DNA from: Alphaproteobacteria bacterium | GTDB lineage: Bacteria > Pseudomonadota > Alphaproteobacteria > GCA-2731375 | Assembly (NCBI GenBank): GCA_965232515.1 | Contig: CBDDPY010000002.1 | Coordinates: forward strand, 5,376,001 to 5,440,000 | DNA: 64,000 nt | Reading direction: 5' to 3' | In this document: positions 24,418 through 31,999 of the stretch, piece after piece | How positions within the stretch are numbered: the stretch's first letter is position 1 | Layout: each line of letters begins with the position of its first letter | Made by a program: the position numbers and the translations under genes | Notes under the pieces: model-generated | The model's input: only the letters and a program-made list of their open reading frames with translations | Told to the model about the DNA's origin: nothing | Databases searched by the model: none

Positions 24418-24603
24418 GCTGCTGCTCCCAGGGGAATTCGCTGTGCTTAGACATAGTTTGACAGGCCGTGCCGGGTCAATCGCCGGCCATGCCGGCGCCG
24501 CGCTCACGCAACGTTGATTTGCCACAGGCGGCCTGTCCCTGGCTCTTGACGTAGGATTTCGGCGATGAATGTCCAAGACCAAAAGACAACAGGAGGCGCG
24601 TTC

Positions 24604-25098
24604 ATGAACATCAAAAGCTCAGGCTTTGTTGCCGGCGCCATCGCGGCGGCCGCACTGCTGGCTTCGGCGGCTCTCGCTGAGAAGGGCGAGATGGGGCCGA
24701 CGGTGATCGAATTCACCCAGACCGGCTGCCAGTTCCTGGAGTCGGAAGGCGGCGTCGATCACGGCTACATGCCGATGACGGCCAAGGACTGCAAGACGAT
24801 CAACGCCCAGACCGGTGGCGAGCGCCTGACCAAGTCCGAGGTGCTGACGCTGAAGCCGGGCAAGTACCTGTTCCGGGTGGCGAACCAGGACGTGCCCTAC
24901 GAACTCGGCTTCTGGCTGCGCGAGCACGACTACGACTGGCGGAATCCGCTGCACAAGGTCAGCAAGATTTCGGTCTCGGGCGGCGGCCTGGTTCAGGGCA
25001 AGGTCAACGAATACGAGGTCGAGCTGAAGCCGGGCGAATACCTCTATTCCTGCCCGCTGAATCCGACGCCGAACTATCGGATCAAGGTCGAAGGTTAG
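24604..25098 (+). CDS. Secreted cupredoxin-like fold protein
   Basis: Signal peptide, [41 protein letters not shown]. Confidence 0.65.
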
Positions 25099-26920: not shown

Positions 26921-27960
26921 GCCCTGAGTTCACAAACGAAGTGCAACACCTTGTGTTGGAGGTGTTGCGATGGGATCCGATTACGCCCAGTTGTCACTGG
27001 AAGAGCGGTGTGAGATTTCCCGCCTTCAAACCGCCGGCCGCTCGATCCGGCAAATCGCGGCAGCTCTGGATCGCGCGCCATCAACAGTCTCTCGCGAACT
27101 GAAACGCAACAGCGGCCGACAGGTCGGCTACAAGCCAGCCTATGCCCAGCAGCAGGCCCGCGCCCGGCGCTGGTCCGGGCCCCGCCTGCAACGCGATCCG
27201 AGCTTGCGCGACCGCGTCCTCGACGGCCTCAAACGCGGCTGGTCGCCGGAACAGGTCGCCGGCCGGCTCGCCCACACCGCCGGCCAACACGTCATCTCGC
27301 ATGAAAGCATCTACCGCTTCGTCTATGCCCAGCTCGCCCGCACCCAGGACTTCCGCTGGCGCCTGCTGCTGCCGCGCGGCAAAAGCAAACGCGGCTGGCG
27401 CGGCCGCAGGGGCGGCAGCCCGGCCAGCTTCATCGCCGGCCGCGTGCCCATCGCCGATCGCCCGGCCGACGTCGACGACCGCACAACCCCGGGACACTGG
27501 GAAGCCGACCTCATGCTGTTCGCGACCTACGGCCAGGCCATCCTCGTCTGCCATGAACGTCTCTCCCGCATCCTCCTCGCCACCCGGCCACCGGGTAAGG
27601 CCGCACAGCCCATCGCAGACCACCTGCACGCCCTGTTCGCCGACCTGCCGCCCGACCTGCGCCAGACCGTCACCTTCGACAACGGCACCGAATTCGCCCG
27701 CCACACCGAACTCCAGCACATCGACATGCAAACCTACTTCTGCGACCCCCATGCCCCCTGGCAGAAGGGCGGCATCGAAAACGCCATCGGCCGCTTCCGA
27801 CGCTTCATCCCCCGAAAGACAAACCTCGACGAGCTCAACCGCCGGCGCCTGCACCAATACCTGCGCGCCTACAACACCACGCCGCGGAAATGCCTTGACT
27901 ACAGAACCCCAGCCGAGGTCTTCATCGAACACCTGTTGCACTTCGAATGTGAATCCACCT
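26921..27960 (+). mobile_element. IS30 family insertion sequence
   Basis: Imperfect terminal IRs TGAGTTCACAAACGAAGTGCAACA (26925-26948) and TGTTGCACTTCGAATGTGAATCCA (27934-27957). Exact ends are uncertain by a few bp. Confidence 0.9.
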
Positions 27961-27980
27961 CCTGGCCTGCGCCAGGATGA
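26970..27980 (+). CDS. IS30 family transposase
   Basis: HTH SIRQIAAALDRAPSTVSRELKRN, WSPEQ, ISHESIY. DDE residues in GHWEADL, TFDNGTEF, WQKGGIEN. Confidence 0.95.
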   Translation: MGSDYAQLSLEERCEISRLQTAGRSIRQIAAALDRAPSTVSRELKRNSGRQVGYKPAYAQQQARARRWSGPRLQRDPSLRDRVLDGLKRGWSPEQVAGRLAHTAGQHVISHESIYRFVYAQLARTQDFRWRLLLPRGKSKRGWRGRRGGSPASFIAGRVPIADRPADVDDRTTPGHWEADLMLFATYGQAILVCHERLSRILLATRPPGKAAQPIADHLHALFADLPPDLRQTVTFDNGTEFARHTELQHIDMQTYFCDPHAPWQKGGIENAIGRFRRFIPRKTNLDELNRRRLHQYLRAYNTTPRKCLDYRTPAEVFIEHLLHFECESTSWPAPG

Positions 27981-28007: not shown

Positions 28008-28781
28008 TTAGCTAGCCCCGGCCTTGCTCAGCGCCTTCGCGACCTGCTTGATCTGGTGGCCGACGGAGACCGGCATCATCGAGGTGATCTCCAGGTCGCG
28101 GTCCTCGTAGGCGTCGGCCTCGGTATGCTTCCGCCGCCAGTCTTCGATGGCTGCGTCGCGCTGGTGCAGCAGCTGCTCGATCTGCGGCCGGAACAGCACC
28201 AGCATAGCCGTGACCCAACGGTTAGTCGGCCATGACGGCCAGGCATGGTCCATGGCGAAACGGTCGAGCAGCCGGATCACGTCGTCGGCTTCATAGAAAG
28301 ACTCGCCCGTGACCCAGCGGTTGGTCGTGAACAGGTGGGTCGGGAAGCCTTTCTTGTCCATCGAGATCGCGATGAGATGGCTGAGGCGTTCGTCGCCCGT
28401 CGGCCACTCGGCCTCACCGTCGTAGGCGACGGGATCGACGCCGGACGGCATGCCCTTCTGGCGCAGAAACGTATGGAAATGGCCGTGCTCGCCCTGTGCG
28501 CCGCGATGGGCGTGATAGTAGTACTGCGAGTGGGTCTCTTTGTCGTAGACATCGCCCTCGGGATAATGGTCCCACTCATAGAAGGTGCCCTGTCCCTTCA
28601 GCACCTCGCCGACGATGTTGGCGTCCACCTTGGTCAATACCCGATAGCACTCGAGCACTTCCTCGCCGGCCTGCCGCATCGCCGTCAGGCGCGCGACCGA
28701 CAGCTCGTCGAAGAGGGATCTCGGCCGGCTCTTGGCCGCCCCGGTCTCGTTCGCCTGCACGATTTCGATCTGTCCTTCCAT
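28008..28781 (-). CDS. His-rich conserved protein of unknown function (DUF6969-like)
   Basis: HYPEGDVYD, QYYYHAH, EHGHFHTF, SHLIAISMD, LFTTNRWVTGE. TGATG coupling to the upstream FGE-like gene, with RBS GAGGGAG. The family name is from recollection. Confidence 0.75.
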   Translation of the reverse strand: MEGQIEIVQANETGAAKSRPRSLFDELSVARLTAMRQAGEEVLECYRVLTKVDANIVGEVLKGQGTFYEWDHYPEGDVYDKETHSQYYYHAHRGAQGEHGHFHTFLRQKGMPSGVDPVAYDGEAEWPTGDERLSHLIAISMDKKGFPTHLFTTNRWVTGESFYEADDVIRLLDRFAMDHAWPSWPTNRWVTAMLVLFRPQIEQLLHQRDAAIEDWRRKHTEADAYEDRDLEITSMMPVSVGHQIKQVAKALSKAGAS

Positions 28782-29632
28782 CACTCCCTCACCAACCTGA
28801 ACCCGATAAGAATATGTTTCAAGGCCTCGGGGCGGGAATGCCGGGCCGCGGGCCGGCAGACGCCGCAGCCGCTGTCGTCCCAGGAACCGCCCTTGACCGT
28901 GTAACGGCCGGCGCCCGCCGCGGTCGCGGTCCACTCGAACACCTGACCGGCCGCGTCGAGCAGGCCGAAGGGACTGGCGCCGTCGGGAAAGCTGCCGACC
29001 GGCATGGTGTCGAAGGGACCGGCGTCGTGGCTGTTCAGCCTCGCCGGTGTGAAGACATCGCCCCAGGGAAAACGCCGCCCGTCCACGCCGCGTGCCGCTT
29101 TCTCCCACTCCGTCTCGCTCGGCAGCCGCCAGGTTTGCCCGGTGCGTTCTGACAGCCAGGCCGCATAGTCCCGCGCGTCGGCGTGGCTGACCAGCACGAC
29201 CGGATGGTCGGCCCGACCCGCCGGCGGTCGGCCGTTTTGCCAGGCGTGACGCCGCGTCCGCTCGAAGGGATGGATCAGGCCATAGCCTTGCCAGACATCG
29301 GGCTGGACATCCGGCGCGCGGTGGCCGGTTTCGGCCACGAAGGCCGCGTACTGGGCATTGGTGATCGGCGTTCGGGTGATCGCGAAGGCTTCCGTCGTGG
29401 CGGTCGCACGAGCCGCCTCGCGGTCGTACCACTTCCACTGCCGGGTCCGAGTGTGTCCGTAAGCCTGCTCGTCCAGGCGATAGCCGGCCTCGCGTTCGAA
29501 GCTGTCGGAACCCATGACGAACGGGCCCGCTGGCACCTCGACCACCGCCGGAATCCCATCGTCGGCCAATGAAGCTCCAGCAAGGCCCAGGCCCAAGATC
29601 ATCAATGCCGGCAAATATCCGCGCACCCGCAA
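28781..29632 (-). CDS. Secreted formylglycine-generating-enzyme (SUMF1/EgtB/PvdO) family protein
   Basis: VPAGPFVMGS, PITNAQYAAF, HPVVLVSH, RLPSETEWEKAARG, FGLLDAAGQVFEW, KGGSW, IGFRLV, plus an N-terminal signal peptide. The start (TTG 29632 or ATG 29602) is uncertain. Confidence 0.88.
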   Translation of the reverse strand: MRVRGYLPALMILGLGLAGASLADDGIPAVVEVPAGPFVMGSDSFEREAGYRLDEQAYGHTRTRQWKWYDREAARATATTEAFAITRTPITNAQYAAFVAETGHRAPDVQPDVWQGYGLIHPFERTRRHAWQNGRPPAGRADHPVVLVSHADARDYAAWLSERTGQTWRLPSETEWEKAARGVDGRRFPWGDVFTPARLNSHDAGPFDTMPVGSFPDGASPFGLLDAAGQVFEWTATAAGAGRYTVKGGSWDDSGCGVCRPAARHSRPEALKHILIGFRLVRE

Positions 29633-29810
29633 TACCCTTGTTTACACATCGGGCCCAAATCCATCGGCGGCCCGTTCTAAGTATAGGAAGCATCGGCCGT
29701 GCTGCATCGCAGCATCACAGACTGTTGAGTGAACTTGACTGGTCTGCCGGGGGCAAACGTAGTCCCCTTAAACGACCAGAAAATCACAAGTTCTGACAGG
29801 AGGCCGGCTC

Positions 29811-31247
29811 ATGCGAGCCCATCGATCAAAACTGCTTTCAACGACTGTTATCCATATGTGTTTCGGTGCCGGCCTTGCCGCGGGTAGCGCCCTGGCGATG
29901 GCGCAAGCGGCGACGGCGGCGGGCACGACGACTGGGCTTGCCAATCCCGATGCCGTCGCCAAACCGACGGCCGGTCTGATCCGCCTCGCGGCCTGCAATC
30001 CGTGCGCGGCCAAGGCATGTAATCCCTGCGCCGCCAAGGCCTGTAATCCTTGTGCGGCGAAGGCTTGCAACCCGTGTGCCGCCAAGGCCTGCAATCCCTG
30101 TGCGGCGAAGGCGTGCAACCCCTGCGCGGCCAAAGCCTGCAACCCGTGCAGTCCGTGTGCGGCCAAGGCTTGCAATCCATGCAATCCCTGCCGTGCGGCG
30201 GCGGCTTGTAATCCCTGCAACCCGTGCAATCCCTGCAACCCGTGCGCGGGCGGTGCGGCTTCGGTCTCGGCCAAGTGTCAGGTGCCGCGCCTGGTGACAG
30301 CGGCGCTGTGCAACCCGTGCGCGGCCAAGGCCTGCAACCCCTGTGCGGCGAAGGCGTGCAATCCTTGCGCCGCGAAAGCCTGTAACCCGTGTGCCGCAAA
30401 GGCCTGCAACCCTTGCGCTGCCAAGGCCTGTAACCCCTGCGCGGCCAAAGCTTGCAACCCGTGCGCCGCGAAGGCGTGCAATCCATGTGCAGCCAAGGCC
30501 TGCAACCCTTGCGCCGCGAAGGCCTGCAACCCGTGTGCGGCCAAGGCCTGCAATCCGTGCCGCGTGGCCAAGGCCTGCAATCCCTGCGCGGCCAAAGCTT
30601 GCAACCCGTGCAATCCGTGTGCGGCCAAGAAGGCCTGCAATCCGTGCAACCCCTGCGCGGCCAAGGCCTGCAACCCCTGCAATCCGTGTGCGGCAAATGC
30701 CTGCAATCCTTGCAACCCGTGCGGACCTTGCGGCGCGGCCGAGGCGCCGGAGCTGAGCACCGCCGAAGTGCGGGCGGCCTACGACTGCCTGCGCGGCGAG
30801 ATGGTCGCGGGCTATGCCAAGTCGGGCATGCAGACCGCCAGCTTCTACAAGGACTGGGCGATCTACAACTCCCAGCCCTACGTCTCCGACACGCATGGCG
30901 GCCGGTTCGTCAACAACTACACCAATGTCGTCGGCAGCCAGAAGTACGGCAAGTACGAGGACGCCGGCCGCATGCCGGTGGGCGCGATGATGGCGAAGGA
31001 CAGCTTCGTCGTGCGCCCGGACGGCAAGATGGCCTCGGGTCCGTTGTTCCTCATGGAGAAGATGCCGGCCGGCTTCAACAAGGAAAGCGGCAACTGGCGC
31101 TACACCATGGTCATGGCGGACGGCGCCGTGTTCGGCACCACCAACGGCCAGGGCTCGAACAACGTGAAGTTCTGCATCGAATGCCACGCGGCGGTGGCGG
31201 AAGATCAGGACAGCGTGTTCTTCCTGCCGGAGGAGTATCGGAACTAG
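29811..31247 (+). CDS. Exported Cys-rich (CNPCAAKA)n repeat protein fused to a cytochrome P460-family heme c domain
   Basis: RBS AGGAGG, signal peptide (..AQA), two repeat blocks. The C-terminal domain has [22 protein letters not shown] and a late CIECH heme motif. Confidence 0.85.
29994..30731 (+). repeat. 24-bp/9-bp coding tandem repeats (CNPCAAKA / NPC) in two blocks
   Basis: Block 1 is 29994-30245 (23 Cys) and block 2 is 30309-30731 (37 Cys). Confidence 0.95.
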
Positions 31248-31390: not shown

Positions 31391-31999
31391 GTGGCGACTG
31401 TGACGTTCTATTTCGACTGTTCCAGCCCCTGGACCTATCTGGGCTTTCATCGTTTTCTGCCGCTCGCCGACGAACTTGGCGTGACCGTCGACTGGCGGCC
31501 GATCCTGGTTGGCGGCGTGTTCAACACGGTCAATCCCAGCGTCTATCAGAGCCGCGAGAACCCGGTCCCGGCGAAGCAGGCCTATATGCTCAAGGACCTG
31601 CAGGACTGGGCCCGCTTTACCGGTATCGAGATCGTCTGGCCGCCCGGCATCTTTCCGATCAACAGCGTCAAGGCCATGCGCGGCTGCATCCACGCCGACC
31701 GGCAGGGCCGCCTGGTGCCGTTCGCGACGGCGGTGTTCGAGGCCTATTGGGGCGCCGATCGCGATATCGCCAACGAGGCCGTGTTGTCCGAGCTCGCGAC
31801 GACGGCCGGGCTCGATGCCGACGCGTTGCTGGCGGCCATCGCGTCGCCCGACATCAAACAGGCGCTGCGCGAGAACACCGACGAACTGATCGGGCGCGGC
31901 GGCTTCGGCACGCCGACGATCTTCATCGACGACGATATGTATTTCGGCAACGACCGCCTGCCGCTGATCCGCGCCGCGCTTGAACGCGCGGCCGCTTGA
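31391..31999 (+). CDS. 2-hydroxychromene-2-carboxylate isomerase / DsbA-like (kappa GST) protein
   Basis: FYFDCSSPWTY, WRPILVGGVF, GGFGTPT, YFGNDRL. Confidence 0.9.
   Translation: MATVTFYFDCSSPWTYLGFHRFLPLADELGVTVDWRPILVGGVFNTVNPSVYQSRENPVPAKQAYMLKDLQDWARFTGIEIVWPPGIFPINSVKAMRGCIHADRQGRLVPFATAVFEAYWGADRDIANEAVLSELATTAGLDADALLAAIASPDIKQALRENTDELIGRGGFGTPTIFIDDDMYFGNDRLPLIRAALERAAA

Follow-up and report, generated by a model that had tools for sequence, protein, structure and literature searches.

Arginine-containing CNPCR units in a cysteine-repeat cytochrome P460 fusion protein are lineage-specific variants and not a conserved aldehyde tag

A 64,000-nucleotide stretch of an alphaproteobacterial genome (GTDB lineage GCA-2731375; assembly GCA_965232515.1, contig CBDDPY010000002.1, positions 5,376,001 to 5,440,000 of the forward strand; hereafter the window, with coordinates counted from its first letter) carries a gene for a secreted protein of 478 residues in which two blocks of short cysteine-rich repeats precede a cytochrome P460-family haem domain. 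A divergently transcribed neighbour encodes a protein with the fold of formylglycine-generating enzyme (FGE). The original prediction, made from the sequence alone, singled out one CNPCR pentapeptide in each repeat block, read the pair as C-x-P-x-R recognition motifs for FGE, and proposed that the repeat protein could be a non-sulfatase FGE substrate or that the arginine marks a cleavage site. We find that these pentapeptides are lineage-specific variants of the usual unit, C-N-P-C followed by Ala, Asn or Gly, and not a conserved tag. The locus is laid out as follows.

28008 to 28781, minus strand: gene for a DUF6969 protein of 257 residues with no signal peptide (Pfam PF22308, E 7.7e-90)
28781 to 29632, minus strand: gene for a periplasmic FGE-fold protein of 283 residues with a signal peptide (Pfam PF03781, E 5.8e-47)
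29633 to 29810, no strand: 178-bp intergenic region from which the FGE-like and repeat genes diverge
29811 to 31247, plus strand: gene for the secreted cysteine-repeat/cytochrome P460 fusion protein (open reading frame, 478 residues)
29994 to 30245, plus strand: repeat block 1, 14 C-x-P-C units, mostly CNPCAAKA, with a 24-bp DNA period
30180 to 30194, plus strand: first CNPCR (tgc aat ccc tgc cgt, residues 124–128), a lineage-specific variant unit
30276 to 30293, plus strand: linker between the blocks, C-Q-V-P-R-L (family pattern C-x-x-P-R-[LVI])
30309 to 30731, plus strand: repeat block 2, 21 C-x-P-C units
30549 to 30563, plus strand: second CNPCR (tgc aat ccg tgc cgc, residues 247–251), within the nine-residue unit CNPCRVAKA
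30732 to 31244, plus strand: C-terminal cytochrome P460-family haem domain (Pfam PF16694)

The N-terminus of the fusion protein is hydrophobic and ends ...ALAMAQA; for this protein and for the stand-alone peptides described below, signal peptides were assigned by eye from such hydrophobic N-termini. The open reading frame encodes 65 cysteines and 35 overlapping C-x-P-C units, 33 of them CNPC, and the repeat DNA is a tandem array with a 24-bp period. Scanned alone, residues 308–478 match PF16694 with an E-value of 4.2e-9 (37.3 bits against a cut-off of 27). This match, together with a C-x-x-C-H motif near the C-terminus (CIECH, residues 455–459, 31173–31187), places the domain in the cytochrome P460/c′-β family, in which a Lys–haem cross-link marks off true P460 from c′-β. 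From the solved members of that family it is nonetheless very distant: a phmmer search of the Protein Data Bank (PDB) with the domain returned nothing, and a profile search of the same database gave a single weak match (7s5o, E 0.02). No Pfam match to the sulfatase domain PF00884 is found on the repeat protein, and a Pfam Cornifin/SPRR match on the repeat was dismissed as compositional. A repeat-less P460-type relative with 40% identity lies elsewhere in the same genome (G000:C2:640827-641315), and several other loci, L027, L034 and L041 among them, have tandem repeat-less paralogues adjoining the fusion gene. In the window, a DsbA-like gene (31391–31999) sits directly downstream of the repeat gene.

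CNPCR does occur twice, once in each block, as originally described. At the 35 C-x-P starts of the window protein, the residue at position +4 is Ala in 22, Asn in 8, Arg in 2, Gly in 2, and Ser in 1. Two random placements among the 14 and 21 units fall into different blocks with a probability of 0.49, and one CNPCR per block is no more than chance. Arg occupies position +4 of C-x-P in 284 of 1832 instances in the genome's long open frames, a rough background that takes in non-coding frames; about 5 would be expected from it for 35 starts, and the 2 observed are, if anything, fewer. The +3 residue is Cys in both CNPCR sites, whereas all eight sulfatase motifs of the same genome have Ser, Thr, Ala, or Gly at this position.

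A search of public data with the haem domain returned 339 fused homologues of 262 to 837 residues, and the best 120 of the 339 were examined for the motif. CNPCR is present in two of these, P0001, which is 97% identical over the query region and contains two copies, and P0097, which contains one; CAPKR is present in three, and 115 contain no C-x-P-x-R at all. The residue that follows C-x-P-C in the 1723 units of these 120 proteins is Ala in 915, Asn in 506, Gly in 257, and Ser in 29, with Lys and Thr (4 each), Arg and Val (3 each), and Ile and Trp (1 each) making up the rarer choices. The same pattern holds for short repeat proteins, for which public data gave 828 matches: of the best 120 of these, 119 lack C-x-P-x-R and one contains CNPCR, Arg following 1 of 793 units. 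Among the homologues examined, both arginines recur in only two relatives, P0001 and the protein of locus L001. These and the window protein are 95–96% identical and differ from one another by whole-unit insertions and deletions. Because both arginines are shared within so narrow a clade despite these changes, we take them to be inherited variants of that clade.

The arginine is likewise lacking irrespective of gene neighbourhood. We assembled 80 related loci, of which 41 have an FGE-like gene in the flank and 23, with 2.5 kb or more of sequence upstream, have none; the other 16 were left out of the comparison between motif and neighbour as truncated or short of flank. Of the 41 loci with an FGE-like neighbour, one contains CNPCR (L001, 95% identical to the window protein), three contain CAPKR, and 37 contain no motif, and the three CAPKR loci form a single clade with near-identical flanks. 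None of the 23 loci without an FGE-like neighbour contains C-x-P-x-R. Neighbour and motif show no significant association (Fisher's test gives p = 0.29 when any C-x-P-x-R is counted and 1.0 when CNPCR alone is), and the expectation that CNPCR would be kept only beside an FGE-like gene is not borne out (1 of 41 versus 0 of 23). C-x-P-x-R is also absent from all 19 resolved haem-domain genes taken from genomes without an FGE-like gene, and from all six stand-alone repeat peptides that lie beside one. A CVPGR in L004, considered as a fifth C-x-P-x-R locus, precedes the start codon and was not counted. With Arg after so few units, and the motif lacking in nearly all fused and short homologues, C-x-P-x-R cannot be upheld as an FGE recognition element here, and the suggestion that the Arg marks a cleavage site falls on the same non-conservation. 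Since the Arg is not conserved, whatever acts on the repeat must do so without relying on it. Only one Cys...Pro-Arg element is conserved in the repeat-protein family, the linker between the blocks, C-x-x-P-R-[LVI]. It is found in 33 of the 41 loci with an FGE-like neighbour and in 13 of the 23 without, and is missing from the stand-alone peptides; in the CQVPRL of the window, Arg stands at +4 as in the FGE motif, yet Pro stands at +3.

What the FGE-like gene does track is the cysteine repeat. It is present in 41 of the 80 related loci and DUF6969 in 40, and the divergent layout of the FGE-like and repeat genes recurs in related loci; Aestuariispira insulae (L029) is a cultured organism that has the complete set. 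Among 401 sampled genomes of the class, 33 contain an FGE-like orthologue (E <= 1e-50), 56 contain haem-domain relatives (E <= 1e-20), and 28 contain both, compared with about 5 expected by chance, a comparison in which related genomes are not independent. Thirteen FGE-like loci that lie away from the fusion gene were retrieved. Five of them have small secreted open reading frames that consist of repeat only (L099, L103 with one of 85 residues, L104 with two, L105, and L109), with a signal-like N-terminus and CNPC units but without a haem domain; in the remaining eight, no such frame lies within about 6 kb. An FGE-like gene beside repeat-only peptides indicates that its linkage is to the cysteine repeat and not to the P460 domain. 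Nor is the linkage to sulfatases: four of five genomes that carry an FGE-like orthologue (92–100% complete) have no PF00884 sulfatase match, and housekeeping sulfatase maturation is accordingly not the role of the FGE-like clade. The proposal of a non-sulfatase FGE substrate thus survives in part. That the conserved partner of the FGE-like protein is a cysteine-repeat protein, not a sulfatase, is supported in this modified form, while the C-x-P-x-R basis of the proposal is not. We also considered whether CNPC-type units, with a Cys before N-P-C, go with an FGE-like neighbour, and rejected this, as their share of units does not differ (median 0.83 with a neighbour, n = 41 including the window, and 0.76 without, n = 23).

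Although the FGE-like protein has the FGE fold, it does not belong to the canonical FGEs. Its AlphaFold2 model (predicted local distance difference test score 87.4) retrieves FGE-fold entries in Foldseek with E-values of 6e-20 to 1e-14, in the order ToxD (6e-20), CalU17, pFGE, PvdO, and then the true FGE 6muj (3e-16). A profile search ranks ToxD (2.5e-38), CalU17 (5e-29), pFGE (2e-22), and OvsA (4e-22) ahead of 6muj (7e-19), and by sequence ToxD (7spq), CalU17, pFGE, OvsA, EgtB, and PvdO all score above the true FGEs. A hydrophobic signal-like segment opens each of the 35 sequences in the alignment, 34 of which are orthologues and one the window's own. The segment quoted in the original prediction, KGGSWDDSGCGVCRPAAR, does contain two cysteines, as was noted there. 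They are Cys256 and Cys259 in Cys256-G-V-Cys259 (28856–28867), and both are invariant in 35 aligned orthologues, as are several His. The remark that their spacing departs from that of canonical FGEs is also correct, the arrangement here being C-x2-C rather than C-x4-C. The second cysteine may match its FGE counterpart, with the loop two residues shorter. One study gives the catalytic residues of proven bacterial FGEs as Cys-272/277 (S. coelicolor) and Cys-263/268 (M. tuberculosis), that is, C-x4-C (PMC2459300); in two others, the Cu(I) site of FGE is described as a bis-thiolate (PMC12123546), and FGE is described as oxidizing the Cys inside CxPxR (PMC7756428). Aerobic FGEs (SUMF1; S. coelicolor 2q17/6muj, T. 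curvata 6s07, human 1y1e) share with the FGE-like protein the fold, the Pfam domain, and two conserved cysteines in the C-terminal segment, and the candidate partner here is rich in Cys-x-Pro. The FGE-like protein differs in its C-x2-C spacing, in its signal peptide, in its occurrence in genomes without a sulfatase, and in ranking the true FGEs below ToxD, CalU17, pFGE, and PvdO; its partner, as a family, lacks the Arg of the sulfatase motif and has no sulfatase domain. A predicted complex of the mature FGE-like protein with repeat residues 100–170 scored 0.01 (mark 0.32), a result that carries no weight either way.

The start of the DUF6969 gene overlaps the stop of the FGE-like gene by 1 nt. 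Residues H90, H92, E98, H101, and H103 of the DUF6969 protein are invariant, a pattern that suggests a metal site, and none of 35 DUF6969 sequences has an N-terminal signal-like segment. Its AlphaFold2 model (score 88.5) found no match among PDB structures in Foldseek at E <= 1e-3, a best Z of 3.5 in a wide VIA-align comparison, and no usable match in the ESM Atlas. In CC-licensed PMC and bioRxiv texts we found no literature on DUF6969 or on CNPC cysteine repeats in the periplasm, no description of a cytochrome P460 with a cysteine-repeat extension of ~250 residues, and nothing relevant on an FGE with a non-sulfatase substrate.

Other neighbours recur without being universal: 19 loci have a class I cytochrome c, 11 have a YeeE/YedE-family transporter, 10 have a cupredoxin-like protein of 177 residues (24565–25098 in the window, and nine others), and 9 have a Sel1-repeat protein. 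The cytochrome c (CycA-like, NF043008, E 8e-30) lies immediately downstream of the repeat-P460 gene, for example at L046:8600-9040 and at 18 further loci. In the window, a complete IS30-family transposase gene (NF033563, E 8e-71; 26970–27980) lies 27 bp past the end of the DUF6969 gene and separates the module of FGE-like, DUF6969, and repeat genes from upstream genes, the cupredoxin-like gene among them.

The cysteine repeat extends well beyond the P460 fusions. Among the short-protein matches listed are stand-alone peptides of about 85–160 residues, fusions to SoxA/TsdA-type cytochrome c (PF21342, confirmed), and proteins with an unassigned middle domain, with source names that include Magnetospirillum, Methylomirabilales, and Nitrospinota. 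NPCAAK-type repeats lie at both ends of the SoxA/TsdA-type domains (P0123, P0169, P0190, and P0212) and also flank the unassigned domain (P0160 and P0179; source labels Methylomirabilales and Nitrospinota). The units vary among CNPCAAK(K)A, single-Cys NPCAAK, and C-G-A-C-G-A-K-K without Pro, so that what they have in common is Cys with Ala/Lys, mostly N-P-C, and not C-x-P-x-R. The Pro-less and single-Cys forms are met in genomes without an FGE-like orthologue (L119 in G352, L116 in G282, L118 in G306, and L120 in G059). The window genome itself contains a second cysteine-repeat gene, for a stand-alone secreted CNPC/NPC peptide of 87 residues (L133:6477-6740, plus strand, equal to G000:C2:6541477-6541740); it lies 1.1 Mb from the window and adjoins genes for Sel1-repeat, PG-binding, CHASE histidine kinase, and large TPR proteins.

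Two known systems offer comparison. Bufferins and oxazolins are described as Sec-exported cysteine-containing precursors of ribosomally synthesized and post-translationally modified peptides that are modified by MNIO enzymes and bind Cu(I), with Buf_EGKCG repeats of E-G-K-C-G and with a Buf1|Cytochrom_C|FGE-sulfatase fusion on record (PMC12452194). Like them, the proteins studied here combine a Sec signal peptide with repeated short Cys/Lys units and occur in stand-alone and cytochrome-fused forms; unlike them, they have a different repeat unit and have an FGE-like protein and DUF6969 as companions. The window genome (96% complete) gives no match to MNIO (MbnB_TglH_ChrH, PF05114), so the repeat system is not a bufferin system. 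No MNIO is found among the conserved neighbour clusters annotated, nor is a DUF2063-type partner, for which no dedicated search was made. Thiol carriers of the SoxYZ/SoxAX type resemble the family in that the same repeat is fused to SoxA/TsdA-type domains in other phyla and in that a YeeE/YedE-family sulfur transporter adjoins the 11 loci mentioned above. The repeat has no homology to SoxY or SoxZ, however, and this likeness is a functional analogy only.

We consider it probable that the CNPCR units are non-tag variants within a poly-thiol haem protein that has a dedicated FGE-fold companion with a C-x-x-C pair. The repeat protein would be a Sec-exported array of some 60 thiols, set in two CNPC(AAKA) blocks and tethered to a P460-type haem domain. 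Its neighbour would represent a distinct periplasmic FGE-fold clade, with an invariant C-x-x-C and paired with a cytoplasmic DUF6969 protein, that serves cysteine-repeat proteins as such rather than sulfatases. Beside the haem domain, the poly-thiol repeat may bind or carry copper, another thiophilic metal, or sulfur species. Copper is suggested by analogy, because FGE is a copper enzyme, because a cupredoxin-like protein is among the neighbours, and because of the bufferin/oxazolin precedent; a sulfur cargo is suggested, again by analogy, because of the SoxA/TsdA-type fusions and the YeeE/YedE neighbour. We propose only tentatively, and with less than even confidence, that the Cys pair of the FGE-like protein, possibly a Cu(I) site, acts on the periplasmic N-P-C thiols or exchanges a ligand with them, with no need for Arg.

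Several observations weigh against this account. Both arginines are kept among the closest relatives (the window protein, P0001, and L001), where they may have a clade-specific role. C-x-P-x-R was found in 4 of 41 loci with an FGE-like neighbour and in 0 of 23 without, which is the direction originally predicted, although p is 0.29 and three of the four belong to one clade. The invariant Cys pair lies in the same C-terminal segment as the catalytic pair of FGE. The window genome has eight Cys-type C-x-P-x-R sulfatases and no FGE-domain paralogue with C-x4-C, and no anaerobic sulfatase-maturating enzyme (anSME) scores above the cut-off in it (best 49.9 bits against 349). As to the companionship itself, of five genomes in which the fusion gene stands without an FGE-like neighbour, three have an orthologue elsewhere, and two, both Sneathiella, have none at E <= 1e-10. 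Of 20 haem-domain genes from FGE-like-negative genomes, 12 have Cys repeats, 7 have none, and 1 was unresolved. At least 12 genomes thus have repeat-haem genes with no FGE-like orthologue at E <= 1e-50, and the partnership is therefore not obligatory.

Were each block a genuine aldehyde-tag site, the FGE-like enzyme would convert Cys124 and Cys247 into formylglycine by way of the Arg at +4. The literal match to C-x-P-x-R, the sequence in which FGE oxidizes Cys according to PMC7756428, the adjoining FGE-fold gene with its invariant Cys pair, and the retention of both arginines in two close relatives speak for this reading; we nevertheless regard it as most improbable, given that the Arg is missing from 115 of the best 120 of 339 fused homologues, from 119 of the best 120 of 828 short ones, and from 37 of 41 neighbour loci, that the stand-alone peptides beside the enzyme do without it, that Cys occupies +3 where the eight sulfatases of the genome have Ser, Thr, Ala, or Gly, and that the enzyme departs from the canonical FGE type. 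Scarcely better placed, and also very unlikely, is the reading in which the FGE-like protein is the organism's housekeeping sulfatase maturase and lies beside the repeat gene incidentally. The genome does have eight C-x-P-x-R sulfatases, and neither another FGE-domain paralogue with two active-site cysteines nor an anSME at cut-off is at hand. Against it, four of five other orthologue-bearing genomes have no sulfatase-family match, the gene again lies beside a repeat gene in 41 of 80 loci, and the nearest relatives of the protein are not true FGEs.

The enzyme could instead modify many or all cysteines of the N-P-C and C-N-P-C units without Arg, perhaps to formylglycine or a different Cys-derived group, which would make the repeat a tailored product. 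The conserved linkage, which extends to repeat-only peptides, argues for this, as do the Cys and the Pro at +2 of the FGE core motif that C-N-P-C retains, the signal peptides on both proteins, and the precedent, in PMC12452194, of enzyme-tailored Sec-exported Cys-repeat Cu(I) binders and of the Buf1|Cytochrom_C|FGE-sulfatase fusion. Many family members, however, have single-Cys NPCAAK or Pro-less C-G-A-C units, repeat proteins occur in genomes without the enzyme, and the share of CNPC-type units does not differ with and without the neighbour, so that we hold the idea to be doubtful. Less doubtful, though still unlikely in our judgement, is the absence of any enzyme-substrate relation: the FGE-fold protein would be non-catalytic or would act on a small molecule, like PvdO, ToxD, or CalU17, the genes would merely be co-regulated in an envelope stress or redox response, and the Arg would be meaningless. 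The nearest solved relatives are indeed small-molecule pathway proteins or inactive paralogues, the neighbours vary (cytochrome c, YeeE/YedE-type, and cupredoxin-like), and the partnership is not obligatory. Co-regulation alone does not sit well with the tight divergent or adjacent placement across many families, even where the partner is a repeat peptide of 80–130 residues, or with the invariance of the Cys pair. The account of non-tag variants in a poly-thiol haem protein with a dedicated C-x-x-C companion is the one we prefer.

One FGE tag per block would have supplied, ready-made, an FGE substrate that is not a sulfatase. The claim does not stand up, and a misdirected peptide assay is thereby spared. 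There is still an envelope gene set, widespread and unstudied (339 fused and 828 short repeat proteins, with FGE-like orthologues in 33 of 401 sampled genomes of the class), and in it an FGE-fold protein whose Cys pair is altered keeps company with poly-cysteine proteins and not with sulfatases. The stand-alone peptides, at 80–130 residues, are far easier test substrates than the 478-residue fusion protein. If the FGE-like protein is catalytic, the substrate logic of the FGE family would be widened, and there could be a second enzymatic route, besides the MNIO enzymes, to periplasmic Cys-derived binders. A bolder possibility, which we rate as improbable, is that the C-x-x-C FGE clade and the His-rich cytoplasmic DUF6969 protein constitute a new, MNIO-independent tailoring system for Sec-exported poly-cysteine proteins, converting N-P-C cysteines to formylglycine or another ligand without Arg. 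If so, marine Alphaproteobacteria, and bacteria beyond them, would possess haem-tethered or free poly-ligand arrays for the handling of copper or sulfur.

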